From the NCBI GenBank assembly GCA_016209795.1, contig JACQVI010000079.1, positions 421-64,420 on the forward strand: a stretch of 64,000 nucleotides of DNA. The letters run 5' to 3'. A program made the translations under genes and the position numbers. Positions 7,980 through 51,657 of the stretch are shown here, one piece after another. Source of the DNA: Ignavibacteriota bacterium. Its GTDB lineage: Bacteria; Bacteroidota; Ignavibacteria; UBA10030; SZUA-254. Under the pieces are notes generated by a model. It saw nothing but the letters and a program-made list of their open reading frames with translations, was not told the DNA's origin and searched no databases. How positions within the stretch are numbered: position 1 is the first letter of the stretch; every line of letters starts with the position of its first letter.

Positions 7980-8011
7980 AAGATACTCTCCTTGGAATTG
8001 TTGTATGATTG

Positions 8012-9226: not shown

Positions 9227-9265
9227 AATGTTGGGAAACGATGTTATTCTTTCTGTTATCTATAC

Positions 9266-31482: not shown

Positions 31483-32643
31483 ATGAATAGCGAGGGAAGT
31501 TTCACACCCGGAGGCTCCTATGATGTCGTTGTGGTTGGGAGCGGACCTGCTGGTTCATCAGCGGCGCTCATATTAGCACAGAATGGTGTGAGCGTTATTC
31601 TCGTTGAGAAGGCTTCACTGCCTCGTTACAAAACATGTGGTGGCGGCATTGTTGGAAGAGCACTGAAATTACTTCCATTCAGTGTGTCACAAGCCATCAA
31701 GCACTATTGCTACACTGCTCATCTTAATCTTGTGGATGCAAATCTCAGTTTCTCCTCATCGAGACAAGAGCCAATTGTTGCAATGACAATGCGTGACAAT
31801 TTTGATTCACTTCTTCTTTTTGCGACACGAGATGCGGGAGCTATCGTTAAATCGGAATGCGAGGTAGTAGATATCCAGCAACAACCTGGTTCTGTGAAGT
31901 TGGTCACTACGCTTGGAACTATTCAAGCAAAATTTATCATCGCTGGGGATGGTGCGTTAAGTACAGTCGCTCGAAAAGCTGGTTGGCGAGAAACACGTAA
32001 GCTCATGCCAGCAGTGGAGTACGAGGTTTTTGTACAAGAGAACGAGTTACGGCGATGTCATCATACAGCAAGGTTTGATTTTGGAATTGTGCCACATGGC
32101 TATGCTTGGATGTTTCCCAAAAAAGAGCATCTCTCCATCGGTGTTTTAACCACGAGGAAGAACTCTGCTAACCTCCATCATGTCGTGAAGAACTACCTTA
32201 AGCTACTGGGCATCGTAAGAATTCCGAGAATTGAAAAACATGGTTTTGTGATTCCGATGGGTCTGAGAAAAGATGGGTTTGCAAGAAATAGAGTACTATT
32301 AGTGGGGGATGCTGCAGGATTTGTTGACCCAGTTACAGGTGAAGGGATTACCTTTGCAATCCTCAGTGGACAGCTTGCTGCGAGAGCAGTTATTGAAGGA
32401 AATTTTGATGAACAAAGCGTTAGACAGAATTACCTGACAACATTACAAGAGCGTATTCTTCCTGAACTAAGGATAGCTTCGTTTCTTTCAAACTTTCTTT
32501 ATCATCCGCAATCTCGGAATTGGTTATTTCGCAGGTATGGACGGAAATTTGCCGACGCTGTTACTGATGTGATGATGGGTGAAAAAACATATAAACATAT
32601 TGTTAGTACACCGCGGAGTTATCTACAACTGATCGGGGTTTAA
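31483..32643 (+). CDS. geranylgeranyl reductase family FAD-dependent oxidoreductase
   Basis: YDVVVVGSGPAGSSAA dinucleotide-binding motif. GDAAGFVDPVTGEGI. Confidence 0.75.
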   Translation: MNSEGSFTPGGSYDVVVVGSGPAGSSAALILAQNGVSVILVEKASLPRYKTCGGGIVGRALKLLPFSVSQAIKHYCYTAHLNLVDANLSFSSSRQEPIVAMTMRDNFDSLLLFATRDAGAIVKSECEVVDIQQQPGSVKLVTTLGTIQAKFIIAGDGALSTVARKAGWRETRKLMPAVEYEVFVQENELRRCHHTARFDFGIVPHGYAWMFPKKEHLSIGVLTTRKNSANLHHVVKNYLKLLGIVRIPRIEKHGFVIPMGLRKDGFARNRVLLVGDAAGFVDPVTGEGITFAILSGQLAARAVIEGNFDEQSVRQNYLTTLQERILPELRIASFLSNFLYHPQSRNWLFRRYGRKFADAVTDVMMGEKTYKHIVSTPRSYLQLIGV

Positions 32644-35570: not shown

Positions 35571-37205
35571 ATGATGACACAGACATATATTCCGAGAGCG
35601 AACGGATGGAGGCAAACGTTACTGATATTTTGGTTTGTTTCTATCTTTCTTGAGTCCGAAGGAGCCCGTTCTCAGGACATCATCGTTGAAGAACACCCGA
35701 ATCATTACATACTTCTTGTAGATGCTTCCGGTTCAATGCTGTCCACAAAGGCGAAGGCTAATGCGCTTCGAAATATTTTGTTTGATACACTAAGCAATCG
35801 ACTTTTTCGTTTGGGTTTCGGCGAGAATATACCGCCTCTTGATCTCAATCGAGATTTCATCACCATGCATACTTTCGGAATCGTGGAGAAGGACTCTTCG
35901 CCAGCATATTTGCGACTCAAGGGTTATGATTTCCAGAAAGACTTTGTTCATACCATCATCTTGAGGGAGAGGTTAGTATCACCCCAGTACTTAACAGCAC
36001 GATTGTATCCGAATCGTTTTTTCGAATTGACAGTTCTTGGCTGGGCGAAGCAGTTAGGATTATCGGCATCCCGACCAGATTCACTAAATACGACCGCAAA
36101 CCGTACGTTCCTCATATTCATTCACGATGCAGAAACCAACGAAAGCTCTCTTGCTGAGGAGCTAATAATGGCCGAACGATGGTCCAACTCAGCAAGTTTT
36201 GAGCAAGCAAAGAGAATTGTCCGTGATATTGACCGCGACTACGGGTTTTATGATGCACAGGGGGAAAGACGGTGGGCTTGGCAACTGAGGTATCATTTGC
36301 CCAATCAACCAAGTCAAACCATATATCTCGAAGCGTACGAAGTTATTGCAGCTAATCTCCTGAAACTTCAAGGCGAGTCAAGATCAATACGTCCCTTCGC
36401 CGATATGAGGGTCAGATGGGTCAACGAGAAAAAAACGAATTCAGAAGGGATATTGAGCTACTCATTTGAAGAAACTTTTTTGACTTGGATTAACTCATTT
36501 CATCCGACCGAGATGACTGTTCACTTCAATTTCACGCGCAATACGACCTCATCTGTACAGCCATTTATCCCCTCAGCTGAGACTCCCTTTAAGTATTCTG
36601 ACACTCTCTCCTGTGATACGAGGGAGGTTAATATCGCATTCCAGGTTCCACTGCATCAATTGGACGCGTTGCTGGGAACGAGAAATATGCAGTTCGTCGT
36701 TGACCATTCACTCACGTTGCCTAAGCCTTTCCGATGCACGATAGAGTTCTTCCTGTTCACGTTGTCCACTGCCACAATTTCAATACTGCTGTTGACCACC
36801 ATAATTTATACAATCTACTTCAGATTCTTCGCAACCCATGTATTTCTTGAACTCCCTGGACTTGTGAAACCAATTCGAATTCGACGGAATACAGTCCTGA
36901 CCCAGGCAATCACCATTGCACCACAAACAAACTTAGAAGTCTTCTCCGTGCTCTTACCTCCCCAATTGATACAGAGACTTTTCTACCGACATGCTTCGTT
37001 ACTTATAAAGACCACCAATCAAGGTCTCTGCAAATGGCAAGATGAGGGAAGCGATTCAACAGTGATTAGACTACCACATAATAAGAAGCGAGTTAATGCT
37101 CTCTGGACTAATCTACCAAGCGGGCCAACAGTTGTTGCTTTGCTTTTTCGGCAGGCCCATTCTGAGTCACAACTCCACGTCGAATATCCAAAAGGAACTA
37201 ATTGA
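35571..37205 (+). CDS. membrane-anchored vWA-like domain protein
   Basis: N-terminal signal/anchor. MIDAS-like YILLVDASGSM (DxSxS). One strong TM helix (FFLFTLSTATISILLLTTIIYTIYF) before a ~130-aa C-terminal tail. Confidence 0.45.
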   Translation: MMTQTYIPRANGWRQTLLIFWFVSIFLESEGARSQDIIVEEHPNHYILLVDASGSMLSTKAKANALRNILFDTLSNRLFRLGFGENIPPLDLNRDFITMHTFGIVEKDSSPAYLRLKGYDFQKDFVHTIILRERLVSPQYLTARLYPNRFFELTVLGWAKQLGLSASRPDSLNTTANRTFLIFIHDAETNESSLAEELIMAERWSNSASFEQAKRIVRDIDRDYGFYDAQGERRWAWQLRYHLPNQPSQTIYLEAYEVIAANLLKLQGESRSIRPFADMRVRWVNEKKTNSEGILSYSFEETFLTWINSFHPTEMTVHFNFTRNTTSSVQPFIPSAETPFKYSDTLSCDTREVNIAFQVPLHQLDALLGTRNMQFVVDHSLTLPKPFRCTIEFFLFTLSTATISILLLTTIIYTIYFRFFATHVFLELPGLVKPIRIRRNTVLTQAITIAPQTNLEVFSVLLPPQLIQRLFYRHASLLIKTTNQGLCKWQDEGSDSTVIRLPHNKKRVNALWTNLPSGPTVVALLFRQAHSESQLHVEYPKGTN

Positions 37206-37220
37206 CATTAGAGGGATTAT

Positions 37221-39278
37221 ATGCAGGAAGCCAATTCAGACAAAACGGAAAAGCAAAGGACAAACGAAATCTCCTACTATGTAGCGCTCGATTTGGGGTC
37301 TGAGTCAATGTCTGCTTACTTTGAAGAGAAGGACTATTCTAAGTTCGATATGGTGGACTTGCAAGCACATGCAAAGACCTTGCTCGGACAAGATCCTGAA
37401 TACCTGATGGAAGAAGTTGAGAATCTTCAGAAGAAAAGTCCACGCCTGAGAACACGGATATTCATTCGCGACAGGAAACAGCCTTCAAGCCTATCGCTCA
37501 ATCATGCAAAATTAGATTTCATCCATAAGAACGGAACGAAACTCCCTGGTTACGATGAATCGCTCTTTGGTCTTTTCGCTGCACCGAACACATGGGTACT
37601 TGGAGGAATGATGCCCAATCCTAAAATCCCATTCCAATATGGTGCCCAAGAAATCATCCCGGAAGTGGAACCACAAGGCGGTGGAATAAAGGTGAAGCAT
37701 AACCCCGAGGTACTGATACAGCATCTCACTGCGCAGATTGTGCGTAATCTTGTGCTGTTGTCTCCCGAATTGCAAAACGTCGACCCTTCAAGCATTGAGC
37801 TTTTGCTGACAGTTCCGAATGTATATAGCTTACCTCATGTGGAAAGCCTCTGCTCATTCCTGCAAACGAACAGTGGCGTGAAAACCGTAAGGGCAGTAAG
37901 CGAGTCAGATGCTGCTGTGTACTTCGTGCTTGACCTTCCTCGAAATACCGATCTCACGGAGGTCAGCGAATTCAAAGGCAGAATCAGGAACAGGAAGGAC
38001 AAGGATTACTTGAGAATTGTTTCTATTGACATTGGACGTGGCACTACCGACTTGAGTGCTATTGAAGTGAAGCCACCACTCAACTCTCAAAGCCCACAAA
38101 ATCTGGTACGCTTGGCAGTCGTTGGCAAGAGTGATGGAGGAAATCGACTGAGTTACATTTTAGCTGAATACTTCAACAAACAGTTTATACATTTTCGACC
38201 AAGGATCGAATCGACCCTGGGAAAGAGTGTGCGATTCTCATTCCTTGAAAAGGAGCCGACCATTCCGACACCTTGGTCCGAGGCCATAGTAGCCTTAGAA
38301 ACCCTGATAGAAAGAATCAAGCGTTCTATCACAGAAAAACATTATGTGGGTTTGCAATCTGACCAGACAATTACAAACAGAATTCTCTCCAAGATCTGTC
38401 AACTAACTGATCCGAATTGGCAAGACAATAACGCTGACAAGTTCCAGGCACTTTTGGATGAGCTAACTGACCAAGGTTTTCTATCTCTGCCAGATTATTT
38501 ACCGCGGGGACTGCGCAGATGGTGGTGGCAAATTTTTTACAAGTCAAATAGGCTGAAACAGATACAATGTGACCTATCTATTGCAATTGAGAAATATGTG
38601 CAAGAAAATGTCTCAGAACTTCTTTCGCAATTAGTTCAAATGTACGCGGCTCGAGATGCTCGCTATACTTCCAAGGTTAGGTCTGCAGGCAAGGACCTCT
38701 TCGATCATAGGTGCACATTCGTAGTTATCTTGGGACAAGCAGCTCAGCTCGCTCCTATCCGATCGGCGATTCGCAGTAAGTTGTCTGAATTTGACTTCCC
38801 ATGGGAAACGAACATGCTTTGCTTGGACGGTCCGATTGCCAAGGAGGCTTGTTGTAAGGGTGCAGTTAGCTACGCCCGTTCGAAAGCAAAACTGACCAAT
38901 GATGACGAACTGATGGGTACATTTGGTATGCTTTCCCGTGTCACTCCGTTTGGGTCTGAGCAAAGTTTCAAAATGTTCAACATGTCAGAAATAAATAGCG
39001 CTAGATCAAGCAGTCAGGTAAGTTTCCCCGCTAAGTCCGAGGCCCTTCTATTCTATTCGTCACGTTTGTATACCAACGGTGAATCGCCAGGCCTGTTTGA
39101 TGGCTATACGGCGATCATCAAGACATTTGAAGGCAGCGAGTTTACATTCAGATATGACCGGCCAAATCGGAAGATTTATGTGAACGATATTCTCGTGGAT
39201 AAGCTTGCAACATACGGAGACATTCAAGAGTCAATCTACTATAAGGTCTGGCCGGAAGTGTTAAAACCGATGCAGTAG
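37221..39278 (+). CDS. Hsp70/actin-fold (ASKHA) ATPase, cytoplasmic, divergent
   Basis: Phosphate-1-like VALDLGSESMSAYF, connect-1-like VSESDAAVYFVLD and phosphate-2-like IVSIDIGRGTTDLSAIEV. No TM segments. Confidence 0.55.
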   Translation: MQEANSDKTEKQRTNEISYYVALDLGSESMSAYFEEKDYSKFDMVDLQAHAKTLLGQDPEYLMEEVENLQKKSPRLRTRIFIRDRKQPSSLSLNHAKLDFIHKNGTKLPGYDESLFGLFAAPNTWVLGGMMPNPKIPFQYGAQEIIPEVEPQGGGIKVKHNPEVLIQHLTAQIVRNLVLLSPELQNVDPSSIELLLTVPNVYSLPHVESLCSFLQTNSGVKTVRAVSESDAAVYFVLDLPRNTDLTEVSEFKGRIRNRKDKDYLRIVSIDIGRGTTDLSAIEVKPPLNSQSPQNLVRLAVVGKSDGGNRLSYILAEYFNKQFIHFRPRIESTLGKSVRFSFLEKEPTIPTPWSEAIVALETLIERIKRSITEKHYVGLQSDQTITNRILSKICQLTDPNWQDNNADKFQALLDELTDQGFLSLPDYLPRGLRRWWWQIFYKSNRLKQIQCDLSIAIEKYVQENVSELLSQLVQMYAARDARYTSKVRSAGKDLFDHRCTFVVILGQAAQLAPIRSAIRSKLSEFDFPWETNMLCLDGPIAKEACCKGAVSYARSKAKLTNDDELMGTFGMLSRVTPFGSEQSFKMFNMSEINSARSSSQVSFPAKSEALLFYSSRLYTNGESPGLFDGYTAIIKTFEGSEFTFRYDRPNRKIYVNDILVDKLATYGDIQESIYYKVWPEVLKPMQ

Positions 39279-39294
39279 CAGAAAGGAGTTCGAG

Positions 39295-41220
39295 ATGCAA
39301 ATCACCAAGCTGGTAGTATTAATTCTATTCTTGGCTATCGGGAACGTTTGTAGAGCGAGTCAAGACGAAGGCAGCCCCATCCTCTACAATTTTATGAGCG
39401 AGACCAATGTTTATCTCTGGGTCTCTCGAGCTGACCAACAACCAACAATCGCAACCATAAACAACGGGAAGTGGGACATCCCGAATACAGCACTGAATAA
39501 TCCTCGATGGAAGCAGCTGATTTCTTCGATTGTAAGCGGCGATTTTTCCTACCAAGATAAGTGGGCAAAATTCCTTGAGAAACTGCGCCTTGAGTATCCT
39601 GACACTACGTGGGCTAAACCGAGATTCCCGAACATTGAGATGTATGTTCGCATTCGTAGTAAGGATTCTGTTGCTGTTCAGATTCTGATGAGGCCTGACT
39701 TCTATGCCGAGTATGCTTTTGTCAAGAAGGAGACATGGGCAAAATCTGCAGATATCCCGACAGACAAAATATTGAACCTTCCGTACCGAGATCCGAATCT
39801 AACGAACATCTTCAACAAGGAAGCAACCGCACACAAGTGGGTGGATTCATGGCACAAATGGATAGAGTCCCGGATCGAGGAGCAAGACTCTATTCGTTCC
39901 ATAATGTATGCGGATAAAGATGGTAAATCCCTTTGGATCATCCAGGAACGGGTCACAGAAAGCAACTGGGTCTCCCGCTCAATGCGAAAGATGCCACCTA
40001 AACCAATTCTCATTGAAAAAACAGACGTTGTTGAAGTGAAGAAGACGGATGTTCTCATGTTACTTATTGTTGCTGCGTTTTCATTACTCTTAGGATTCGT
40101 TTCGCCGTGGCGCCTTTCTTTTATCCAACGTCTCATACCACTCCTATATCGAAGGAAGAAGCCCCAGATTCCAAACGTCGATGATGTCTCTTCGGGGCAT
40201 TTTGAGCAGCGTCTCACTGGGGTAAACAGGACTCGTCCAATTGTCGCAGAGAACAAGATTCAGAAGATCATATCCTCACAAGCTAACATAGAAAAGCTTT
40301 ACCAAATTTTCACAACGTATGAGAAACGCCAAGAGACCTTTTTGATTAATCTCCACGAGCAATTGGAGTCATTGTTCACCGAACTCCACACTAACACCTT
40401 GGAAGAATATGGTGTAGATGGACTTCAGTCTGATGAAGCTAAGCTGCTTCTAAGCTTAGGAACCTCCGCCAAAGAATGTCTTAGGAAATTGGATAGCTTT
40501 ATTGCCCAGGATCGTTTCCCAGCCAATCTGTTTTCGAATGATGCACATGCAACCTGGCTAAACGAGATTCCAGTGGTGTTGGTTTCGCTTAACGATCAAT
40601 TATCTAAAGCAAAACATCAATCCTCAGCGACCAGAGACAAGTTATTAGCGACTTCAGAAGAACTGAACCAAACGAAGAACCAGCTGCGAGAATTACAGGA
40701 TGTGAATAACCAGCTCGTTACTAAAGTCAGTAAGCTCGAACAGGAATATGGTAACATTCGCCGCCAACAGGAAGAATTGAATAGCCGCATGGAAGACCTA
40801 CACAAGGTAGAAAGCCTTGCTGTCTATTTAGAACAAGGCGAAGGGTATGTGCTCGCCCAGACGGATAACCCTGAGCAAGCTGCTATCGTCAGCTTTCTCT
40901 CCACGTACGCACTATTTCATCTTTGGGGGGCTACACTTAACAAACATTCAGAGAAAAGAGAAGTCATGCTTGCTAACATCTACTCTATTGCAGATAAGCT
41001 CAGATCATATCGTGGTTTTGATGTTGTTCTCAATGAGGTTGATACGACTGCACGAGCAGTGAATGAACTAGAGACATTACTGGGGAAGTCCCAAGAGAAA
41101 CATCATATTGCGCATCTGTTCCAAGTCTTACTGAGACGGCTAAGAGATATCAGTTCAGTTGACTTAGCTCCATATTACATAGGTCTTGATAAGTATGGGA
41201 AGTTATTCAAAGTAGCATGA
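39295..41220 (+). CDS. bitopic membrane protein with periplasmic N-domain and long cytoplasmic coiled-coil
   Basis: Signal peptide. Single TM (VLMLLIVAAFSLLLGFVSPW). Heptad-rich segment KAKHQSSATRDKLLATSEELNQTKNQLRELQDVNNQLVTKVSKLEQEYGNIRRQQEELNSRMEDL. Confidence 0.45.
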   Translation: MQITKLVVLILFLAIGNVCRASQDEGSPILYNFMSETNVYLWVSRADQQPTIATINNGKWDIPNTALNNPRWKQLISSIVSGDFSYQDKWAKFLEKLRLEYPDTTWAKPRFPNIEMYVRIRSKDSVAVQILMRPDFYAEYAFVKKETWAKSADIPTDKILNLPYRDPNLTNIFNKEATAHKWVDSWHKWIESRIEEQDSIRSIMYADKDGKSLWIIQERVTESNWVSRSMRKMPPKPILIEKTDVVEVKKTDVLMLLIVAAFSLLLGFVSPWRLSFIQRLIPLLYRRKKPQIPNVDDVSSGHFEQRLTGVNRTRPIVAENKIQKIISSQANIEKLYQIFTTYEKRQETFLINLHEQLESLFTELHTNTLEEYGVDGLQSDEAKLLLSLGTSAKECLRKLDSFIAQDRFPANLFSNDAHATWLNEIPVVLVSLNDQLSKAKHQSSATRDKLLATSEELNQTKNQLRELQDVNNQLVTKVSKLEQEYGNIRRQQEELNSRMEDLHKVESLAVYLEQGEGYVLAQTDNPEQAAIVSFLSTYALFHLWGATLNKHSEKREVMLANIYSIADKLRSYRGFDVVLNEVDTTARAVNELETLLGKSQEKHHIAHLFQVLLRRLRDISSVDLAPYYIGLDKYGKLFKVA

Positions 41221-41252
41221 TAATAGTTTATTAGATTTAACAAGAACTGGGA

Positions 41253-44200
41253 ATGGAATTCTTCATCATACCTCAGCTTACTTTGACTTTTGCGTTAGCT
41301 CTTCTGATATCGAGAAGTAGCCAAGAGACATTAGTCGGAGTATCAAAGTACTTCTTCATAGCATATTCTTGGTTCACGTGCGGATTACTCGTTTGGATGA
41401 TAACTTATTTCATTGGATTGGGCGACAACGGGACACCAAGGTTGTCGCTGGAGGAGCAACGACGAATTGTACACTTGGGTTACTATGTAGATCCGGATAG
41501 TTCAATTACTTTCAGTGGAGAGGGTTTTGAGAATTCCTTTCCTCACCAAGTCCTAAGTAACAACGATCGGATAAGACTAACACCTCTCTTTGGCCCTAGT
41601 ACTCTCAGAGCGACGAAATGGTTGGTTGAACATGAGATTCGCAGCCAACCCTTGAGACTCGATGATTCATGCGTAAACATCTCTCAACAAATGTGGCTGG
41701 CTCCAGGAGATACCTTCTCTGCTTATATCTACAGGGAGAGCGGCCCGCTTTTTTTCCGTCTCAGATGGGTAGTTGACACAACGTGGTGGGGTAGAGTCCA
41801 AAACAAATACTATTATACACAAGGTGTCTTCAGAAATGGGCTGGCAAATTACGAAATACGTGATACGGTGTTTTCAAAAAGCGCGCTGAGAGAAGGCCGC
41901 AAGCTGAGCGTAATGATGAGTTTGTGGGCTCAAAGAGAAAAAGAAGTATCTCAGCGTATTAACTCAACTTTATGGAATATCTTTCGAGGCATTACTTTCG
42001 TACGCGAGAAAAGAAATGACATTCTATCCAGGATAGGCCTGCTCATTGCTGATTCTTTGCTAGAAGAGTCCAATATTACGTTATACAAGAACTCTTCACG
42101 CCTTACCCGAGAAAGTGCCAACAGGGTAATAGAAATTCCTTTTTCTACCCATGTCGAGTGTGGGCTTGGGGCAAGCGATAAGCTCTCCCTTGTTCTTACA
42201 GATACGTTATCAAACGATAGCTACTTGGGCAATGTCCTCGAAGTCCGGTTTGAAAAACCCTATCGCTGGCCGCTGCCTCCAAAGCCTGACCAATATTTTA
42301 TCACAACCACCACCGATGATTTCATCCCTAGAGATGGCTATCGGATAAGCCTCGGACAATCAACAAATCCACTGTACGCGAAGTGTGTTCTGAATCGGGC
42401 AAGAGACACCATCGAAATAACTGATGGCAGGAGTGTCAGAGCTTTTCCATTGGGCGGTGTTATTAGGCTAGGGGACTTCCAACGTGGAGCAATCCTCTCT
42501 CTAGGGTCTGTAAACACTTTCGCAACTCTCCCATTGATTAGTAGCCAGCTGTACAATATTGGAGTTACAGCAACCTTGTTTCTTTTGATTTTGACTCTAT
42601 TAGTTACTTGGCTTCATTTTACAGAGAAGTACTCCCGTCCGAGGCTCGATGTTGGTTGGGTCGTGGTTTGGGGAGTAATGCTCACGATACTTACAGTGCG
42701 CCTTGTCTTATCGTATCGGGCAAGCTTATTGGCTCCAGAAGATGCGACACCGCGTGAGGTATTGGAAGTCTTTAGAAAGAGCCTCGATCTGAGCCTACTT
42801 GGCCTGCTCTTGATCCCATTATTGTTCATAGTCACACGTTGGTGTTGCCGAGATCACATAGAAGGTTTGTTTAGCAAAACCATTGCCGTTCTCAGGAAAC
42901 ATAAAACCATTGTATTACTGACATCGGCCATTGGGGCAGTTGCAATCTTCTCATGGCACATCCATTTCCAAAAACTCATTCAGGAAGCCTCTGAAGTCGA
43001 ATGGTTTCATTGGATCATGATTGGGGTATTACTTTTCGTCTGCAGTCTAGTTTGGATTCTGATGCGCAAGTGGAGAATCTACCTTGGGTGGGCCGCTGTT
43101 ATCCTTGCGTGGGTCCTTGTCGCCCATTTTTTTGGTATTGGTGAATCATTCTTCGGCCGCGTGAATATCGCAACGCACGTCTTCATGATAGTAGCCCTTC
43201 TCTCAGTGTCCAAACGAATCGTCGCTAATGCCAGCGTTATCGATTATACCATGGGCTTTTTGATTATCGTCGTTGGAATAGTGGCGGTCGTGGTTATCAT
43301 AGGTGATCGGGGGTTCATAATCTATACTCCGTCTTTGGTAACATTCCCGTTGTTGTGTCTTTTCTGGAATCGCCAATCAATCAACAACATCGTCTCTGAC
43401 GGACGTATCTACATCAGTTCACGATTACCTTTGGTTTTAGCTGGAATCATCAGTTTCGTTCTGCTCGTGGCGCTTCTCTCACAACTCGAGTGGAGGAGCC
43501 AAGTAATAAATCCTCGTAATCTTGAATCGCTCCATTACCGTTTAGCGAGCTTCACTGACACAGAAGAGTCTATTCTTCTCGCTCGTGAGGAAGATAGAAA
43601 CTTCAATCTGGATATGCTGCTCAGAAACTCGCATCAAGATTGGCAGATGAAGTTGTATGCGTCCGAAGGTGCTGATAGCGCGAGAGGATACGGAAAAGCG
43701 CCTCCGTCTGACATAGGAATGACTTATGCGACCTCATCTTCAGATTGCGTTTTCTCAACTTACTTGCTTGCAGAACACGGCTCCTTTGCGGCGCTGTCAG
43801 TTGTATTGTTGTATTTAACCCTAGCTATTGTTGTTTGCTTTGCTGCCTTGCATTTTCCAATCGACTACCAGCATCGTCTACTAACGTTGATCGCAATTGC
43901 ATCTTTCTTCGTGGCTAATTGTTTGTACATGGCAAGTACCAATGTTGGCTTGGCTCCCTTCACGGGTCAAAACATACCGTTACTTTCACTTCACTCTGGA
44001 TCAGATCTTGTGCAAGGATGTTTGCTTTTGCTTCTTCTCTCAGTTCTTCTATCCAAAGGGGTACATACGAGCACAGGTGTTGCACTTCCGGGGAACCCCA
44101 TCGTACGCAAGGTCGTTTTCTTTGTGATCATCCTGATCATTTTCTGGTTTGTGGCTCTCACCTTCTCTATCATTAATGTTGCTGCTAAAGACGATTATAG

Positions 44201-46466
44201 AAAAGACCATGACTTCCGCAGCACCTACCCCGGCCTTAAAGAATCTCTGCCTGACATTGATAACCCGGAGCGTGCCACACGCTGGAAATTGGTCGGTGAG
44301 AATTTGTTGCGACGCGCGGGCAGCTTCGCCATTCCGGGAATCGATGCTCTCATTGCGCAATTTAACGAAAAAGCCAACAAGTACGATGCTAACAATAACC
44401 TGATTTATCTCGCAGTCCACCCGACGAAAGGAGATACGGTCGTCGCAGTCAACCGAAATTATTTTAGACTTCGTTCTCCGTTCAGAATCGATTCGATCTG
44501 GACCGGAATAATCCTTTCGAGGTCGGATCCTGCCGCACCTACTATCAGTGGATTGGGGGGATCGTTCAGAATCAGTCTCCGCGATAGAGGACATGCTGAG
44601 AAGATTTCTTTGGGCGAGTCACCACCATTAATTACGACAAGGGCAGTGCAGATCACTGATCCAGGACGTAACGATGCATTCTTTGAGTTGATCCGCAGAG
44701 GTGAGGAGCTATTCCTTGAACGAAAAATAGGAGACTGGGAGATTTCGGTTAACGGGTCTAGGGTGACCTCACCGGTGAGGTTAAATCCATTCGATATTAT
44801 TTCCTTGGCAAGAAAGCAAAGACCATCCCACCAAGTACAATCTCGTTATAGGCTGACCACATTTTACTACTTAGGAATACAACATCCCATCTTCGCTTTT
44901 ACACAATGGAGAAATGGCAGGACCCGTCGGCTGTTTCCAGAAGGCGAAGTGTTCCCGCTCTCGTACGCTTTGGCGAAAAGCATGGACGAACTCCCACACC
45001 GACCTGATACCTTGGCTATTTCGCTCAACTTGTCACTACACACTTCTCTACAAAATGAGATAGCTGCGTTTGCAAGCAGATATCCACAGTACTCAGATAA
45101 TGAACCTCTCTCCACTCGCAAGCTCGCAGTGACATTAATCGATGCTTTTTCAGGCAAATTGCTTGCCATTCCATCGTGGCCCTTCATTAGTCCAAACCAA
45201 TTCGATTTTGAGGAAAAACTAGTACGGGCAACACCTACTGAGCAAATGCGGCTGGTCAACAATCATAATTTCACGAATCATCCCATTGGTTCAACTATCA
45301 AACCGCTCGTGTTGGCTTCATTAGCAACGATGTTGTGGCCAGAGGTTGACGTGTCGAGGATCTCTGTTTCAAATATTGCGGATAATACCACAGGTCACGA
45401 AACTGGAAACCGTGAGTACCGACATCCTCATGTGCGAGTTGGAAGTCATGAGCTAGAAGCGATTTGGGATTGCAATAGTGAACAGTCCTCGATCAACGCC
45501 CATGATTTTATCATCCATTCGAGAGACTATTACATAGGCATGATAGGGGTCCTCGGAATGCTCACGGATAGGAGTGACTGGACCAGAGTACTCAACCAGG
45601 AAGGAACAGGAAACAGGATAATATATGGTAACAGAACATACTCAATCAATATGTACAACGCCCGCATGTCGCCCTTTGTTTGGGACGGTACTCGAATTAC
45701 TGGTCTCCGTACTCAATCGAGCATGGACAGTACCTTCCTTTTTAAGGGGCTTTCTTCCGCCTTCGGGGCAGGTCTCTCAACCAGTTACAAATTAATGTTG
45801 AATCGATCTGTTGCTGACTTCTTCCCTTCCTTGCATAGGATGAATCTGCCCGTCATTGATAGCTTAGAGTCAATGTATCTAGATAACGTCGTTCCCGAGC
45901 CAGTATTACTTCACTTTGGAGAAACTTCCCAACTTCTGCGTCGCGATTTGATTACTTTCTTACTCGGGGCAGGCCAGTGCCGATGGAACAACGTAATCAT
46001 GGCCCAATCTGCTGCCCGTGTTGCGACTGGTAGAGCAGTAACTGCAACCTTGGAGTTAGATAATGTGGAAGAAAATCCGCGCGCGTTTCCTCTCTTACAC
46101 CCACCAATGGATAATAGACAATGGCGCTATGACAACCTGATCACACCTATGAGGCTTGTTGGAGTGCGAGGTACAGCTGATTCATTGAGGAATCTAGTTC
46201 AATCACCATTCGTTGCCATTTACAAAACTGGCACAATTGAAGAGAGGGAACGTGGACCGGAAAGCGAGTGGCTTCTTTTTGTAGTCGGTAGATTACAGAA
46301 TGACAGTTTCGTTCCTGGTGAAACAGTAGCGGGCTTCTTCTATATGCAGGAGTCAAAAGACCGATACGGGCCTATGAAGAAGTTCGAACTTGCACGCCCG
46401 ATTATCACTCGTGTCGTTGATTATCTTAAGCGCGTTTCAACAGTGTCACAACATTACGATGAATGA
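41253..46466 (+). CDS. giant (1737 aa) SEDS (FtsW/RodA/SpoVE-like) glycosyltransferase fused to a class B penicillin-binding protein transpeptidase, with a ~420-aa N-terminal extracytoplasmic extension and extra TM helices
   Basis: SEDS blocks: SSSDCVFSTYLLAEHGSFAALSVVLLYL (compare SDFIFsvigEELGfiG; D831 at nt 43743) and GLAPFTGQNIPLLSLHSGSDL (compare GllPvTGvPLPFiSYGGSS). Transpeptidase motifs: SxxK = STIKP (S1347, nt 45291), SxN = SIN and KTG = KTGT (K1658, nt 46224). Confidence 0.7.
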   Translation: MEFFIIPQLTLTFALALLISRSSQETLVGVSKYFFIAYSWFTCGLLVWMITYFIGLGDNGTPRLSLEEQRRIVHLGYYVDPDSSITFSGEGFENSFPHQVLSNNDRIRLTPLFGPSTLRATKWLVEHEIRSQPLRLDDSCVNISQQMWLAPGDTFSAYIYRESGPLFFRLRWVVDTTWWGRVQNKYYYTQGVFRNGLANYEIRDTVFSKSALREGRKLSVMMSLWAQREKEVSQRINSTLWNIFRGITFVREKRNDILSRIGLLIADSLLEESNITLYKNSSRLTRESANRVIEIPFSTHVECGLGASDKLSLVLTDTLSNDSYLGNVLEVRFEKPYRWPLPPKPDQYFITTTTDDFIPRDGYRISLGQSTNPLYAKCVLNRARDTIEITDGRSVRAFPLGGVIRLGDFQRGAILSLGSVNTFATLPLISSQLYNIGVTATLFLLILTLLVTWLHFTEKYSRPRLDVGWVVVWGVMLTILTVRLVLSYRASLLAPEDATPREVLEVFRKSLDLSLLGLLLIPLLFIVTRWCCRDHIEGLFSKTIAVLRKHKTIVLLTSAIGAVAIFSWHIHFQKLIQEASEVEWFHWIMIGVLLFVCSLVWILMRKWRIYLGWAAVILAWVLVAHFFGIGESFFGRVNIATHVFMIVALLSVSKRIVANASVIDYTMGFLIIVVGIVAVVVIIGDRGFIIYTPSLVTFPLLCLFWNRQSINNIVSDGRIYISSRLPLVLAGIISFVLLVALLSQLEWRSQVINPRNLESLHYRLASFTDTEESILLAREEDRNFNLDMLLRNSHQDWQMKLYASEGADSARGYGKAPPSDIGMTYATSSSDCVFSTYLLAEHGSFAALSVVLLYLTLAIVVCFAALHFPIDYQHRLLTLIAIASFFVANCLYMASTNVGLAPFTGQNIPLLSLHSGSDLVQGCLLLLLLSVLLSKGVHTSTGVALPGNPIVRKVVFFVIILIIFWFVALTFSIINVAAKDDYRKDHDFRSTYPGLKESLPDIDNPERATRWKLVGENLLRRAGSFAIPGIDALIAQFNEKANKYDANNNLIYLAVHPTKGDTVVAVNRNYFRLRSPFRIDSIWTGIILSRSDPAAPTISGLGGSFRISLRDRGHAEKISLGESPPLITTRAVQITDPGRNDAFFELIRRGEELFLERKIGDWEISVNGSRVTSPVRLNPFDIISLARKQRPSHQVQSRYRLTTFYYLGIQHPIFAFTQWRNGRTRRLFPEGEVFPLSYALAKSMDELPHRPDTLAISLNLSLHTSLQNEIAAFASRYPQYSDNEPLSTRKLAVTLIDAFSGKLLAIPSWPFISPNQFDFEEKLVRATPTEQMRLVNNHNFTNHPIGSTIKPLVLASLATMLWPEVDVSRISVSNIADNTTGHETGNREYRHPHVRVGSHELEAIWDCNSEQSSINAHDFIIHSRDYYIGMIGVLGMLTDRSDWTRVLNQEGTGNRIIYGNRTYSINMYNARMSPFVWDGTRITGLRTQSSMDSTFLFKGLSSAFGAGLSTSYKLMLNRSVADFFPSLHRMNLPVIDSLESMYLDNVVPEPVLLHFGETSQLLRRDLITFLLGAGQCRWNNVIMAQSAARVATGRAVTATLELDNVEENPRAFPLLHPPMDNRQWRYDNLITPMRLVGVRGTADSLRNLVQSPFVAIYKTGTIEERERGPESEWLLFVVGRLQNDSFVPGETVAGFFYMQESKDRYGPMKKFELARPIITRVVDYLKRVSTVSQHYDE

Positions 46467-48017
46467 ACTACTAAGCAAAACGCCGCCTAACAACAGCAAA
46501 AAACGATTCGGGCAAAAAGCGCCCTCACCCAAATTGCGGCACTCTCGCAATCTTCCCACTCCCCACAGAATCAAACTAACCGCCAATCCCGGATACATCG
46601 GCTCAATCCCAAGGGGATAATTTCCTGTTGCTCCATTCACATGTCCAGCAATAAGCCACCCCAGAGATGTTAGCCAGCCGAGCAGCATCGAGAGAAATGC
46701 ATAGCGTGCCGAGATTTTCAATCGCTCAAAGTAACTTGCCATTAACGGCACAAGCAAGCCTGGAATCACAACCGTCCCAATCGTGTACCAGAGTTTGATG
46801 ACGCTGGGGATGGCAAGTCCGAGAAGAGCAGAAAATACGAAAGAGACAATCAAACCGAGTTGCGTATACTTTGTTAAAGACTGGTTTGAGTTTGCAGGTT
46901 CGAGATGTGAGTAACCCTCTCCCCTCTTGTTCCCCTCTCCCAAATTTGGGAGAGGGGATGCAGGGGTGAGGGTATTACTCAATCCTCTAACCTCTAACCG
47001 CATCGCTACATCTCTTCCCAACGTTTGTGCTGAGACAAATGCTAAAGTGTTCAACGTCGACATAATCGTTGCGAGCATGCCGACGTAAAACAATCCTTTG
47101 GCAACGGGTGGAAGAATGGTTTCCGCAAGCATTGGGTATGCTGCGATTGGATTCTGAAGATTTGGAAGTGCGGCACGAGCATACAGTCCTGCCGTTGCTG
47201 TCATACAATCAAAGATGAACCAGAAGATAATTGAAACGAGAATCCCCTTTTGCGCCGTCGTGCCGTCCTTTGCTGCGTAGCACCGTTGATGAAATGCAGG
47301 ATCGACTAACGTCCAGAGTGCTATGAAAAACCAGACAAGGATGTACTGGATGGAATGCCCGCCATGCCATGCCAAGTGCAGCGGTGGGAGGCTCGATTGC
47401 AGATACTCAAATCCTCCGTAACTCGTAATGCAAAAAGGAATAATGATAAGAAAGCCAAGGAACATCAGGATGAATTCAAGAACATCAGTCTGGACATCGG
47501 AACGAAATCCACCAAAATACAAGTAGGGAAGTATTACAATCGCAGTTACTATGACGCTCAGGAGCATACTCCATCCAAAAAGCATTTGGAGAAAAACGCT
47601 GAGCATCAGAATATATGGTGCCGGCGTCATCAGAATGAACGTGAGAACTGAGCCAAGCAGTGCTGTTTTGTTGTCGTAGGCGTGTGCGAGTTTATCCGGG
47701 ATCGAGTACAGGTTTGTTGCTCGGATTTTCTTTGCAAGGAAGAATGCGAAGACTGCAGCGAAAACATAATAAGGCAGCCCCTGCACAACCCAATTTGAGA
47801 TACCATGCCGGTATGAAAACTCTCCCACACCTAAAATACCGCCATACCATGTTGAGACCAGCGTCATCACAAACACAGGAAGCGTCAGCGAGCGTCCCGC
47901 TAAGAGATAATCTTCTTCGGACCTGGTGGTTTTCCTTGCTGATCGAAAGCCGATATAGAGAACTGCCGCAAAGTAAAAGAGAATAATGAAGATGTCGATG
48001 AAGGAGAGATTAATCAT
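46446..48017 (-). CDS. sodium:solute symporter (SSS family) transporter, probable vitamin (thiamine-related) uptake
   Basis: 523 aa with about 13 TM helices and SSS-type N-terminal helices. It is the last gene of the riboswitch-TonB-receptor-TPK operon. It contains an in-frame palindromic insertion (see repeat feature). Confidence 0.75.
   Translation of the reverse strand: MINLSFIDIFIILFYFAAVLYIGFRSARKTTRSEEDYLLAGRSLTLPVFVMTLVSTWYGGILGVGEFSYRHGISNWVVQGLPYYVFAAVFAFFLAKKIRATNLYSIPDKLAHAYDNKTALLGSVLTFILMTPAPYILMLSVFLQMLFGWSMLLSVIVTAIVILPYLYFGGFRSDVQTDVLEFILMFLGFLIIIPFCITSYGGFEYLQSSLPPLHLAWHGGHSIQYILVWFFIALWTLVDPAFHQRCYAAKDGTTAQKGILVSIIFWFIFDCMTATAGLYARAALPNLQNPIAAYPMLAETILPPVAKGLFYVGMLATIMSTLNTLAFVSAQTLGRDVAMRLEVRGLSNTLTPASPLPNLGEGNKRGEGYSHLEPANSNQSLTKYTQLGLIVSFVFSALLGLAIPSVIKLWYTIGTVVIPGLLVPLMASYFERLKISARYAFLSMLLGWLTSLGWLIAGHVNGATGNYPLGIEPMYPGLAVSLILWGVGRLRECRNLGEGAFCPNRFLLLLGGVLLSSSFIVML
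46915..46990. repeat. nested GA/CT-rich palindromic element inserted in-frame in the SSS transporter CDS
   Basis: Perfect 10-bp stem cccctctccc-aaattt-gggagagggg, flanked by an outer imperfect stem gagtaaccctc...gagggtattactc. It translates to the loop insertion NLGEGNKRGEGYSHLEP. Confidence 0.4.
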
Positions 48018-48071
48018 TGGTTCTGAGTTGTGAGTAGTTACTGGTTAGTAGTTAGTATCCAGCATCGTGGA

Positions 48072-48692
48072 TCACTGATTAATTCGATAGAGCAGGAGCG
48101 TTCCTTTTTTCACTGTAATGGTAACCATCGATGCTGTTGCTTCATTACTAATTCCCTCTCGCACGCCAAGCTCAAGCGTTTCGTTCTGCAAGCCATATTT
48201 TAAGTTCTTTGTTGTAACGCCGCTGCATCGCTCTAAGGGAATCAAGGAAAGCCGCTCACCTTTTCTCGTTTTGAAGCGGCTCCGTTTTTGAATCAAGGTT
48301 ACTTCTCCAACGGAATCCACTAAGCGCAGTCTTACGTTGCTTCCATATTTTTTGAAACAGCCAAGACTCCCAGTTGTGTGATCAATCCGATCGCCCGACC
48401 AGCCGATGACATCAATGGATGCTGCTTTTCGCTGGATACAGAATTCAATCGCTTTCTCCAGATCGGTGCTGTTCTCGTCTTCGATGAACAACTGTGGGAT
48501 GGATTTGAAAAAAGCTTTTGTGGGAGATGTGACTGAATCCATGTCGCCAAGGATGACGTCCGGCTTGATTTTCAGCCTTCGGGCATGGTTTGCTCCTCCA
48601 TCTGCACACACGATCAAGTCGGCATGCTTAAGAAGCTTACGAACAAGTTGAGGAGAAGGGGATCTTCCATTCGCTATGATGAGGGCGTGCAT
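48072..48692 (-). CDS. thiamine pyrophosphokinase
   Basis: CADGGANH and ILGDMDSV motifs typical of TPK. Length 206 aa. Confidence 0.8.
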   Translation of the reverse strand: MHALIIANGRSPSPQLVRKLLKHADLIVCADGGANHARRLKIKPDVILGDMDSVTSPTKAFFKSIPQLFIEDENSTDLEKAIEFCIQRKAASIDVIGWSGDRIDHTTGSLGCFKKYGSNVRLRLVDSVGEVTLIQKRSRFKTRKGERLSLIPLERCSGVTTKNLKYGLQNETLELGVREGISNEATASMVTITVKKGTLLLYRINQ

Positions 48693-48697
48693 GGGTC

Positions 48698-51043
48698 TTA
48701 CAAGTTTGCGGTTATGCCAACGAGATAATTCCGTTCCGCTGCAGGGAAGAATGCATTCCCTTCACCGCTCATAAAGTAGAGGTTGTTAAAGATATTCCGA
48801 ACTTCTCCACGTAGTGTGAAGGTCGTTCCAGCTATCTCGGGTGTTTGATAGATGATCTCAGCGTTTAACACTGTGTAGGCATCGTTTTTGTTGTCTTCAT
48901 TTTTGAAATTATCAGTATAGAAAGCTCCAACATATTTTGCAAGCACGGAAAGCGTTATTGGATGTTGACGATACGTTACCCGCACATTGCCAAGTGCATT
49001 TGGAAAACCTGCAATCGGATTGCCATCCAGGCTGGTAGGGACAACAATTGTGTTTCCAGCGGAGTCTGCTGATTCCAAGTATACACGATGCTTGACGAGT
49101 TCATTCTGAGAAAGCGAAAAATTACCGCTGAGTGTCAATGCTTCGACGATGTTGAAAGATCCATCAAGCTCTACACCGATGTGTCGAGTCCGTTCTGCAT
49201 TGCCAGTCACTGGCTGTCCAAAGATATCCACTTGACCGCTTTTTACCAGTTCATCAGTAAATTCCATCCAAAACACATTTGCAGAAAGACGAGCGATGGA
49301 ATTACGGAAGCCAGCACCGGCTTCGAGATCAAGCAGATGCTCTGGCTTGGCAAGCGGCTCACCAAAGTCGTATTTCACTACTCCACCTGTCGTGTCAGCT
49401 TTGAACTGTGGCGTTGCTCCGAAGTACGAATCTTCAGCAGCATATAAGTTGCGAAGTCGTGGCTCCCGTGATGTATACGCAAGGGAGAGATAAGCATTCC
49501 ATTCGTCCGTAATGTTATAGTTCAAGCCAACTCTTGGGTTGACGAAGATATATGGCAGGCTGAATGTGTTGTTCAGATATTTTTCATTCTTGATTCCATA
49601 GCGATTTCTCACAAGCTGTAAGTCAGCCATCAATGTGGTGTTCTCTGCCAGTCGATAAAGCTCGTGAGCATAGGCAGAAAGAATATCCTTCTCACCGTTG
49701 TATTCATAGAAGTGATAATCAGGATCAAAATTGGTCGGAAGTCCTTCGGCAAATTGGATTTTACCCCAATGGGTTGATCGGTGGATGCGCAGCTCAGCAC
49801 CCAATGTGAGGCTGCCATCGCCATGATCATATTCTATTCTCGGCAGCCATCCCCATTGCTTGTTGCCGACAAAAGCACGTACCAGCGTGTTGGTTGGATT
49901 CTGAGAGGTTGGAATTCCATAAGCATAACCGATTCTTAGTAGTGATGTATCTGCCCATGAGGCATCATAATCAAAGAAGCCATCGCCGGTATAGTAAAAT
50001 ATCGTGTTATGGAGAGTAGTTGTAGGGGAAAGCTGCCACTCATTCAAGAGCTCGTAGTGAGGCTGTGAGAAGTTTTCGATCTCTTGTGTTCTTCGCGCCT
50101 GGGTGTAGCCATATCCTTTGCCAGTCGAATCAACTTCCCAGTAGACGAGGTTTTGTCGGCGAAAAGTTTTATTATCGTTAACAAACTTTGGAAGACCATA
50201 GTATGCGAGGCCATCTGCGATAGGACCGCCGAAAATATGAATGCGTGTCATCATCTCTTTATCAAAACGGACTGCACCAAGGAAATACGAGTTGAAATCC
50301 ACCCAGGAATTTTCACGGTATCCGTTGCTCAGAATTTTTCCGAGTCTCCCATACACCATGTATTGCTGTTCGATCAATCCTGAGTTAATGGTTGCCGTAT
50401 ACTTTCTTGTGTTGAGTGAAAGCGTTCTTTCATCATCTCCAAACTCCTGAAATCCAAGCATCGTTTCCAGCGTGATTCCCGGCTTACGGCTGAAGGGGTT
50501 CGTGGTTAGATTAATCGAGCCGCCGATTGCTGGAGGTCCGTAGAATGCACTTCCGGCACCACGTTGCACTTGAACGATGCCAGTGCTTGCAATAAGATCG
50601 GGGAAATCTATCCAATACACATTATGATCTTCCGGATCGTTTTGAGGAACACCGTTGATCATTACCGAAAGCCGACGCTGATCAAATCCACGCAGGTTGA
50701 TGTAATTGTAGCCGATGCCGTTGCCGTTCTCCGAGTAGTATGTGATTGAAGGAAGCTCTGAGAGTAGGACCGGTATATCTTGAGTAGAGTATCGCTCCGA
50801 GAGTTCTTGCTGAGTAAGATTGGAAAATGTCACAGGCGATTCGCGCTCGGTTGCTTGAGTGGCTGTGATGATTACAGGTGATAAATAGTACGTTGTCGTA
50901 TCGGCAGGACTATCTTGGTTTTGTTGAGCAACGGATAAATGTACACTACAAATCAGATAGAGTGAAATCAATGTTAGAATCGTTTTCATTGCAAATCCTT
51001 TCATAAAAGTCTCTAAAATACAAACGCCGCTTTCCTGATCCAT
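48698..51043 (-). CDS. TonB-dependent outer-membrane receptor (probable thiamine transporter)
   Basis: Signal peptide, plug domain with TonB-box-like region and 22-strand barrel length (781 aa). TPP riboswitch immediately upstream. Confidence 0.85.
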   Translation of the reverse strand: MDQESGVCILETFMKGFAMKTILTLISLYLICSVHLSVAQQNQDSPADTTTYYLSPVIITATQATERESPVTFSNLTQQELSERYSTQDIPVLLSELPSITYYSENGNGIGYNYINLRGFDQRRLSVMINGVPQNDPEDHNVYWIDFPDLIASTGIVQVQRGAGSAFYGPPAIGGSINLTTNPFSRKPGITLETMLGFQEFGDDERTLSLNTRKYTATINSGLIEQQYMVYGRLGKILSNGYRENSWVDFNSYFLGAVRFDKEMMTRIHIFGGPIADGLAYYGLPKFVNDNKTFRRQNLVYWEVDSTGKGYGYTQARRTQEIENFSQPHYELLNEWQLSPTTTLHNTIFYYTGDGFFDYDASWADTSLLRIGYAYGIPTSQNPTNTLVRAFVGNKQWGWLPRIEYDHGDGSLTLGAELRIHRSTHWGKIQFAEGLPTNFDPDYHFYEYNGEKDILSAYAHELYRLAENTTLMADLQLVRNRYGIKNEKYLNNTFSLPYIFVNPRVGLNYNITDEWNAYLSLAYTSREPRLRNLYAAEDSYFGATPQFKADTTGGVVKYDFGEPLAKPEHLLDLEAGAGFRNSIARLSANVFWMEFTDELVKSGQVDIFGQPVTGNAERTRHIGVELDGSFNIVEALTLSGNFSLSQNELVKHRVYLESADSAGNTIVVPTSLDGNPIAGFPNALGNVRVTYRQHPITLSVLAKYVGAFYTDNFKNEDNKNDAYTVLNAEIIYQTPEIAGTTFTLRGEVRNIFNNLYFMSGEGNAFFPAAERNYLVGITANL

Positions 51044-51084
51044 CCAGCGTAGAAGAATCAGAAAAACGGCGTTCGAGAAGTTGT

Positions 51085-51175
51085 TACTCCGTTTCCCTAC
51101 GCTGGTATGATCCAGATCAGGTTCCCAGGGTATTCTCTCAGTCCAGCCTGAGGCGGGACACCCCTAACGGATTTC
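51085..51175 (-). promoter_or_regulatory. TPP (thiamine pyrophosphate) riboswitch, THI-box
   Basis: The minus-strand RNA reads ccguuaGGGGUGucCcgccucaGGCUGAGAGaauACCCUgGGAACCUGAUCUGGAUcAUaCCAGCGUAGGGAAacgg. The P1 stem is ccguu/aacgg. The conserved CUGAGA, ACCCU..GAACCUGAUCUGGAUAAUGCCAGCGUAGGGAA core matches almost base-for-base. Confidence 0.8.
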
Positions 51176-51402
51176 ACACTCAATATAATACCCCAAGCTC
51201 AAGAAAGCAAATCGATGATTGGTCTATGGAAAGCTCAATACTCCTGTTGGTGTTATGGGTGATTTTCTGATTATTCTCTGGATAGTTTTTTTGTTTTCAA
51301 AGAAAAAGCTGCTAAGCACCTGTAACTTCTGGTTGCTCATCTCATGGATTTTACTTATATTGGTGGTGCATTTTTCAATTCTTTTGGAAGGAACTCAATA
51401 CA

Positions 51403-51657
51403 ATGGCTCAACACCTCTCGGCAGAACGACAAGCACGAAAGGCGCTTCGCCATCGCGAGCGCAATCGACGCTATCTGTCTATGATGAAAACTGCAATCAA
51501 GCGGGTTCGTGAAGCGAAGGAAAAAGATAAAGCGGCGATTGCTCTGAAGCGAGCGATGAAGTTATTGGATCAAATGGCGGCGAAAGGAATTATCCACCGC
51601 AACAACGCTGCCAATAAAAAGTCTAGCCTGGCAAAATTTATCGCTGCATTGAAATAA
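51403..51657 (+). CDS. rpsT: 30S ribosomal protein S20
   Basis: 84 aa, MAQHLSAERQARKALRHRERNRRY..., typical of S20. Confidence 0.9.
   Translation: MAQHLSAERQARKALRHRERNRRYLSMMKTAIKRVREAKEKDKAAIALKRAMKLLDQMAAKGIIHRNNAANKKSSLAKFIAALK

Follow-up and report, generated by a model that had tools for sequence, protein, structure and literature searches.

A TPP riboswitch-controlled operon of Ignavibacteria with a predicted Na+/thiamine symporter of the SSS family

The stretch of DNA analysed here, referred to as the window, comprises 64,000 nucleotides of contig JACQVI010000079.1 from an Ignavibacteriota bacterium (assembly GCA_016209795.1, positions 421 to 64,420 of the forward strand), and all positions given below for it are counted from its first nucleotide. 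On its minus strand, between 46446 and 51175, a thiamine pyrophosphate (TPP) riboswitch is followed by the genes for a TonB-dependent outer-membrane receptor, a thiamine diphosphokinase (TPK) and an inner-membrane symporter of the SSS family. An earlier note, which was made by reading the sequence, had described this region as a thiamine operon in which an SSS transporter is found instead of PnuT.

The riboswitch-controlled transcription unit

The aptamer of the riboswitch (THI element) is located at 51077-51175 on the minus strand. With Infernal it matches RF00059 with 74.3 bits compared to a gathering score of 54.3 (E = 9e-13) and spans the full model, positions 1-105 of 105; the THI-box of the earlier note is indeed a TPP riboswitch. 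It is the sole Rfam match at the gathering threshold in the window. The same element scores 95.5 bits with a custom covariance model (R1), built from 36 related aptamers, which replaced a THI-box regular expression that had found the aptamer in 41 of the 80 related loci described below. In itself this TPP riboswitch is ordinary.

Three open reading frames (ORFs) follow 3' of the aptamer on the minus strand, at 48698-51043, 48072-48692 and 46446-48017. They are separated by 5 nt (receptor/TPK) and 54 nt (TPK/SSS), as had been noted before, and no terminator is predicted inside the operon. The first ORF encodes a TonB-dependent outer-membrane receptor, a predicted thiamine receptor, with a Plug domain (PF07715, 58 bits) and a barrel domain (PF00593, 99.5 bits). 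The ATG at 51043, with which the longest version of this ORF begins, sits within the stem of the terminator described below, and a signal peptide follows M14 of this version. The gene is likely to start at ATG 51004, beginning MKGFAMKTILTLISLYLICSVHLSVAQQ with the signal peptide, which gives a receptor of 768 aa encoded at 48698-51004. Because of this likely start, the distance between the end of the aptamer and the gene amounts to 72 nt, so that the position of the riboswitch upstream of the receptor stands as claimed, whereas the distance of about 45 nt has to be corrected. The receptor reaches the cut-off of none of the named NCBIfam equivalogs for TonB-dependent receptors. Its homologues in the same position of related loci show 47-73% identity, and it is 33.5% identical to a Calditrichaceae receptor which is also encoded behind a TPP riboswitch.

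The second gene (48072-48692, minus strand) encodes a TPK of the ThiN/Tnr3 type with 206 aa, which contains PF04263 and PF04265 and reaches 166.4 bits with the equivalog TIGR01378 (cut-off 76.4). The third gene (46446-48017, minus strand) encodes the SSS-family protein of 523 aa, which matches PF00474 with 102.9 bits (gathering score 22.8) and is the predicted Na+/thiamine importer of the inner membrane. Because the gene for ribosomal protein S20 (rpsT) lies divergently upstream and an ORF of 1737 aa convergently downstream, riboswitch, receptor, TPK and SSS gene form one transcription unit. Between the aptamer and the convergent gene only receptor, TPK and SSS genes are found, and no PnuT gene is present there.

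The rpsT gene (51403-51657, plus strand) parts the operon from TPR and GT2 glycosyltransferase genes, and its divergent position implies that the operon has its own promoter region. Between rpsT and the aptamer a putative sigma-70-like promoter can be read at 51182-51210 on the minus strand, consisting of the -35 hexamer TTGCTT (51210-51205), a 17-nt spacer and the -10 hexamer TATATT (51187-51182). At the other end, the convergent ORF overlaps the stop codon of the SSS gene by 21 nt. A consensus scan lists terminator-like hairpins at 46481-46534 (minus strand), within the non-conserved 3' tail of the SSS gene, as a possible operon end; the region-wide count of such hairpins is no higher than in shuffled sequences.

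Directly 3' of the aptamer, at 51015-51075 on the minus strand, an intrinsic terminator is found as putative expression platform, whose hairpin comprises about 25 bp and runs into UAUUUU. The hairpin (51075-51015) has a folding energy of -38.4 kcal/mol (z = -7.3 versus dinucleotide shuffles), and the minimum-free-energy fold of the whole leader holds this terminator and the folded aptamer together. When the 3' arm of the terminator is omitted from the fold in order to mimic the nascent transcript, the minimum-free-energy fold contains a different hairpin of -12.4 kcal/mol, the predicted antiterminator (51059-51098, minus strand), in which AGGGAAACGG from the P1 3' strand pairs with CCGUUUUUCU from the terminator 5' strand. 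A hairpin with a U tract right after the aptamer is present in all 61 related leaders that were tested; about 56 of these terminators are convincing and about 5 are weak. Most of the related hairpins have the arms GCCGTTTTCC and GGAAAACGGC, and in most related loci the P1 3' strand GGGAAACGG is a near-copy of the terminator 3' strand GGAAAACGGC. From the folding of the leader together with the conservation of the platform we infer a transcriptional OFF switch, in which terminator and antiterminator would compete.

Conservation in Ignavibacteria and spread beyond them

A scan of species-representative genomes yielded 80 loci whose SSS proteins share 54-72% identity with that of the window, all of them from Ignavibacteria-type metagenome-assembled genomes (MAGs). 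In 76 of the 80 loci a TPK gene lies directly upstream of the SSS gene (tblastn). Two of the remaining four have less than 200 nt of upstream sequence, which leaves 76 out of 78 informative loci and two true exceptions (L010 and L026). The gap between TPK and SSS has a median of 11 nt, and in 26 of 75 pairs the start and stop codons overlap. A receptor gene is found upstream of TPK wherever the contig extends that far. According to the covariance model, exactly one TPP aptamer precedes the receptor on the coding strand in 62 of the 80 loci, and the 18 aptamer-free loci are cut off by the contig end, save L010, L026 and L053. Because the arrangement recurs in 62 independent genome loci, it is far beyond chance. 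The earlier note had proposed to look for SSS genes in TPP regulons by comparative genomics; this comparison bears out that the SSS gene belongs to the thiamine unit and does not form a unit unrelated to it, as does the absence of a predicted internal terminator.

In 59 of 73 related loci SSS is followed by a convergent gene and thus closes the operon; no conserved gene is found downstream of SSS, and the next gene varies between loci. The interval from the aptamer to the end of the SSS gene holds only one or more receptors, TPK and SSS, plus a TenA-like gene in one locus. No PnuT gene occurs within the related operons from the riboswitch to the end of SSS, so that the claim of an SSS transporter in place of PnuT holds for them as well as for the window, and ThiD, ThiE or ThiM are found in none of the operons.

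Some loci deviate from the common layout. In L010 (201-3062), which has neither TPK nor riboswitch, SSS is preceded by an aminotransferase gene, and L053 has TPK-SSS with no receptor in the 1.2 kb upstream; together with L026 these loci may represent paralogues or rearrangements. The additional gene of L022 (4104-5003), located between riboswitch and receptor, belongs to the TenA/THI-4 family (thiaminase II-like) and suggests that this lineage recovers products of thiamine breakdown. Six loci possess a second, shorter TonB-dependent receptor of 615-638 aa between the first receptor and TPK (L059, L062, L065, L067 and L076 at about 5380-7320, L074 at 165-2012), and in L074 no other receptor is seen up to the contig end. 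This lineage may use two outer-membrane receptors of differing vitamer specificity. In L032 (7356-9407) TPK and SSS are combined in one ORF of 683 aa with no stop codon between them, which could be a true fusion or else an assembly error or a lost stop. Because the N-terminus of SSS proteins is normally periplasmic, a true fusion would be topologically odd.

Beyond this set, a HMMER search of 1.84 billion cluster representatives (clusters at 50% identity) found 314 representatives of the SSS family at E < 1e-30, and the genomic context was sampled for members at falling identity. A Calditrichaceae MAG (L091) has an RF00059 match of 71 bits, followed by receptor, TPK and an SSS protein 47-50% identical to that of the window. 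The order is therefore the same as in the window although the organism belongs to another phylum; the Calditrichaceae receptor differs by an extra N-terminal carboxypeptidase-regulatory-like domain. Receptor-TPK-SSS is also found for a relative with 43-45% identity, and a Zixibacteria MAG as well as one further contig have receptor-SSS without TPK. In an Eisenbacteria MAG (L081) the riboswitch (RF00059, 66 bits) stands directly before SSS, which is followed by a receptor, and no TPK is present. The order of SSS and receptor in L081 is the reverse of that in the window, and both are called there as a single gene of 1238 aa (5855-9717), in which the SSS domain is followed by a complete Plug and barrel receptor; this is probably due to a lost stop or a frameshift. 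At 33-34% identity, TPK overlaps SSS and there is no riboswitch. The link between the SSS subfamily and thiamine genes is thus old and has been repeatedly reshuffled, which is a strong argument against a mere passenger gene.

The operon type as such has been noticed before. In Caldithrix abyssi (Cabys_3975-3977) a TPP riboswitch was described at a distance of 163 nt before the gene for a TonB-dependent receptor, in a locus which also contains SSS and TPK genes, and the thiamine pathway of this organism is incomplete (Kublanov et al. 2017, PMC5317091). The receptor of this locus was reported to be highly similar to BT2390, the OMthi/Omr1 thiamine receptor (PMC5317091). The window has this Caldithrix-type layout, with a TPP riboswitch before the receptor and SSS and TPK in one unit. 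A literature search for the gene combination found only this paper, in which the locus takes up one sentence; the receptor is discussed there, whereas the SSS protein is neither named nor classified (PMC5317091). The proposal of an uncharacterised importer family is supported in that a distinct SSS subfamily linked to thiamine genes exists, but the locus type is not new, given the C. abyssi report of 2017. What is added here is the operon's phylogenetic spread, the distinction of its SSS protein from ThiV, the conserved terminator and a residue signature of the SSS subfamily.

The other operon type to be compared is that of Bacteroides, where a TPP riboswitch controls OMthi, PnuT and thiamine pyrophosphokinase, in B. 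uniformis as OMthi-pnuT-tnr3 (Costliow and Degnan; bioRxiv 10.1101/867226). Not only the gene order differs from receptor-TPK-SSS in the window. In Bacteroides the inner-membrane part is taken by the Pnu-family facilitator PnuT, which relies on trapping by phosphorylation, whereas the window has an SSS protein that is presumably Na+-driven; furthermore, the transport riboswitches of B. thetaiotaomicron act on translation, whereas a terminator is predicted in the window. As no PnuT is found in the riboswitch-controlled unit of the window, a Bacteroides-type OMthi-PnuT-TPK operon is ruled out.

The SSS subfamily and its relatives

ThiV-type, thiamine-related SSS transporters were reportedly described in Rodionov 2002 and Carini 2014. 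Known SSS transporters under TPP riboswitches include ThiV/SSSP in Methylobacillus, SAR11_0811, the algal SSSP and the fungal SSSQ/Dur31 (PMC11452348; McRose 2014, PMC4260697; PMC5997356). The occurrence of an SSS gene in a TPP regulon is therefore not new in itself, although the known proteins belong to another SSS clade. In order to compare them with the window protein, the sequences of SAR11_0811, SSSP, SSSQ, PanF, PutP and SiaT were taken from the supplement of PMC11452348 and analysed by BLASTP, phmmer and hidden Markov models (HMMs). Like ThiV, SSSP and SSSQ, the window protein is a PF00474 protein under a TPP riboswitch. ThiV, SSSP and SSSQ have been assigned to thiamine or hydroxymethylpyrimidine (HMP) uptake and demonstrate that B1 metabolism can make use of the SSS fold. 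By sequence they are far apart. The window protein scores 218-438 bits within its own subfamily, 69 bits to PanF and 26 bits to SAR11 ThiV (phmmer), and phmmer detects no match to the Phaeodactylum SSSP or Candida SSSQ references. ThiV, SSSP and SSSQ score 100-141 bits among themselves, and an HMM of the window subfamily gives 132 for PanF, 99 for PutP and 71.5 for ThiV. Membership in the ThiV/SSSP clade is ruled out, as the window protein is nearer to PanF than to ThiV. The gene partners differ as well: ThiV is combined with ThiE, ThiM, ThiD, TenA or ThiG and with HMP, the window subfamily with TPK and a TonB-dependent receptor. These comparisons point to a separate recruitment of the SSS fold to B1 metabolism.

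PanF is by score the nearest characterised relative (BLASTP 84 bits, 25% identity). The window protein is nevertheless neither PanF nor PutP, as it reaches only 97.5 bits with TIGR02119 (PanF equivalog cut-off 328) and 61 bits with TIGR02121 (PutP equivalog cut-off 515.5). The closest solved structure by sequence is that of the bacterial choline transporter (CHT) sfCHT (PDB 9RWS, 62 bits). The AlphaFold model of the window protein shows an SLC5/LeuT fold (pLDDT 80, pTM 0.82), and Foldseek assigns a probability of 1.0 to CHT1, the top match, as well as to SGLT, vSGLT and SiaT. Because CHT1, SGLT, NIS and SiaT score about alike, this result is uninformative on the substrate.

At the Na2 site, in the helix that corresponds to TM8 of PutP, Ser320-Thr321 of the window protein match the MST motif found in PutP and PanF, whose Ser and Thr are S340/T341 in PutP. 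The Ser-Thr pair is common to PanF, sfCHT, human CHT1 and the window protein. With the choline transporters the window protein further shares the motif T-W-x-G-G of the unwound helix, where its W57 corresponds to W99 of sfCHT and W62 of CHT1. Additional equivalences to sfCHT are Y83 (Y126), R42 (R84) and Q244-R245 (Q303-R304), residues which in sfCHT line the substrate site or the intracellular path (PMC13220886). On the other hand, W176 of sfCHT is replaced by Thr131, the region of sfCHT W298 could not be aligned, and E66, D239 and D270 are extra conserved acidic residues in the window protein. Across the subfamily W57, Y58, E66, Y83, Y84, Y135, W229, D239, F242, Q244, R245, F269, D270 and S320-T321 are conserved. 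Among these, the acidic residues E66, D239 and D270 as well as the aromatic residues W57, Y58, Y83, Y84, Y135, W229, F242 and F269 are missing from PanF and PutP. Judged from these alignments, the SSS protein is a member of a subfamily of its own with a choline-transporter-like TWYGG/QR signature, and the conserved acidic and aromatic residues would fit an organic cation such as thiamine, which we take as a lead. No residues were found which separate members in thiamine context from context-free members, and the signature is kept in both groups.

Two parts of the window protein are missing in its homologues: a loop of low complexity, about 45 aa long (residues ~343-385, ~46860-46990), with a pLDDT below 50, and a C-terminal tail of about 28 aa (46446-46533). 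The conserved part of the protein ends near residue 495, and the tail may stem from the loss of an ancestral stop codon.

Predicted function and rival explanations

We consider it quite probable that the operon serves the scavenging of thiamine (vitamin B1), that it is switched off by TPP and that the SSS protein is a Na+/thiamine importer. Transcription would start just upstream of the aptamer. At low TPP the P1 3' strand GGGAAACGG would pair with the 5' arm of the hairpin that follows, so that an antiterminator is formed and transcription reads through; with TPP bound, P1 would close, the 25-bp terminator would form and transcription would stop before the first gene. The TonB-dependent receptor would bring thiamine or a phosphorylated form of it across the outer membrane, and the SSS protein would carry free thiamine across the inner membrane on the Na+ gradient, in the role which is held by PnuT in Bacteroides. 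TPK acts on free thiamine and converts it to TPP in one step, which in this operon would trap the imported thiamine and at the same time yield the ligand of the riboswitch. It is the conserved Na2 site that points to Na+ coupling, and the context alone that points to thiamine as substrate.

Taking a broader look, we lean towards the view that the SSS protein represents a distinct, unnamed subfamily of Na+/thiamine symporters, which would have evolved independently of both ThiV/SSSP/Dur31 and PnuT, would have its relatives in PanF and the CHT-type carriers of organic cations, and would be the main inner-membrane B1 importer of thiamine-auxotrophic lineages of the Fibrobacteres-Chlorobi-Bacteroidetes (FCB) group (Ignavibacteria, Calditrichota, Zixibacteria, Eisenbacteria). 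A pocket of W57, Y58, E66, Y83, D239 and D270 would then recognise the thiazolium cation.

Several observations weigh against this interpretation. The assignment of the substrate is a case of guilt by association, and PanF, the nearest relative by score, carries an anion. In the AlphaFold model, confidence is low for residues 54-58 and 234-239. Three of the 80 close homologues (L010, L026, L053; 60-67% identity) lack the canonical context, as do four of the sampled distant relatives (L084, L087, L089, L090; 30-39% identity by tblastn), which have no thiamine context at all, and the TenA-like pyrimidine-salvage gene of L022 hints that degradation products or precursors may be handled by some members. 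Finally, the putative promoter is a weak match which was read from the sequence: its -35 hexamer agrees at three of six positions and the consensus scan does not list it.

Import of a precursor or breakdown product such as HMP, aminomethylpyrimidine and its formylated form (AmMP/FAMP) or thiazole, as has been proposed for ThiV in SAR11, is in our view unlikely. TPP riboswitches often control precursor transporters, SSS-family ThiV/SSSP has been tied to HMP uptake in SAR11 (PMC11452348), and the TenA-like gene of L022 stands between riboswitch and receptor. The window protein, however, lies outside the ThiV/SSSP clade, with only 26 bits to SAR11 ThiV, and its invariant partner TPK acts on intact thiamine, whereas ThiD, ThiE and ThiM are missing from the operons. 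Moreover, the Chlorobi-affiliated bins CHB1 and CHB2 from anammox granules were found to be without ThiE and ThiL (Lawson et al., PMC5460018), which would make precursors useless there. Because ThiE and ThiL are missing or the pathway is incomplete, only intact thiamine would be useful to CHB1, CHB2 and C. abyssi.

A passenger role of the SSS gene, in which it would only occupy the end of the operon and encode a carrier of an unrelated solute like pantothenate, proline or choline, is very improbable. Such a reading could draw on the best named matches, which are PanF (BLASTP 84 bits, TIGR02119 97.5) and the bacterial choline transporter (62 bits), and on those family members found without thiamine context; yet all scores with named equivalogs are far under the cut-offs (PanF 97.5 versus 328). 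Linkage to TPK, receptor or riboswitch is retained as identity falls from 72% to about 33%, in at least four phylum-level lineages and in varied gene orders, start and stop codons of TPK and SSS frequently overlap, and in L081 the riboswitch directly precedes SSS. Hardly any weight is given to the idea that the SSS protein carries thiamine monophosphate (TMP) or TPP, or that it is mainly an exporter or equilibrating carrier for vitamin sharing. It has been suggested that secondary vitamin carriers mediate sharing in communities (PMC6593275), and the outer-membrane receptor could admit phosphorylated forms. But TPK would be needless if TPP were imported, the repression by TPP fits uptake, since expression would be on only when TPP is scarce, and an anionic substrate is hard to reconcile with the conserved acidic residues.

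A large number of bacteria in the environment are unable to synthesise vitamin B1, and studies of its exchange hinge on the recognition of transporters. In a coastal study several populations of Bacteroidota and Actinobacteriota were found without any described system for B1 synthesis or transport (PMC10881298). If the thiamine importer reading is true, the SSS subfamily would provide a new marker of B1 uptake for Ignavibacteria, Calditrichota and neighbouring phyla, groups that are frequent in sediments and groundwater as well as in wastewater and anammox reactors, and surveys of B1 auxotrophy which score thiT, thiBPQ, pnuT, thiV and omr1 would miss this route. The replacement of PnuT by SSS would also be a further case of non-orthologous displacement in vitamin transport, and mechanistic comparisons with the PnuT facilitator would gain a counterpart that is driven by Na+ and probably of high affinity.

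Among the ORFs scanned in the 64 kb window no thiamine biosynthesis genes were found. A Thi4 candidate at 31483-32643 was rejected, as it remains sub-threshold and reflects a generic FAD-Rossmann similarity in a geranylgeranyl-reductase-like protein. On the plus strand, at 35571-46466, four large ORFs of 544, 685, 641 and 1737 aa succeed one another up to the operon. None of them is above a curated Pfam cut-off; the 641-aa ORF shows only a sub-threshold coiled-coil match, and the 1737-aa ORF only an NCBIfam match far below the cut-off. Near the beginning of the window (680-1888, plus strand) a protein of 402 aa is encoded that has an HD domain and, at its C-terminus, a PycTM (Pycsar effector transmembrane) domain (124 bits); judged by these domains, it may be a defence effector activated by cyclic nucleotides.

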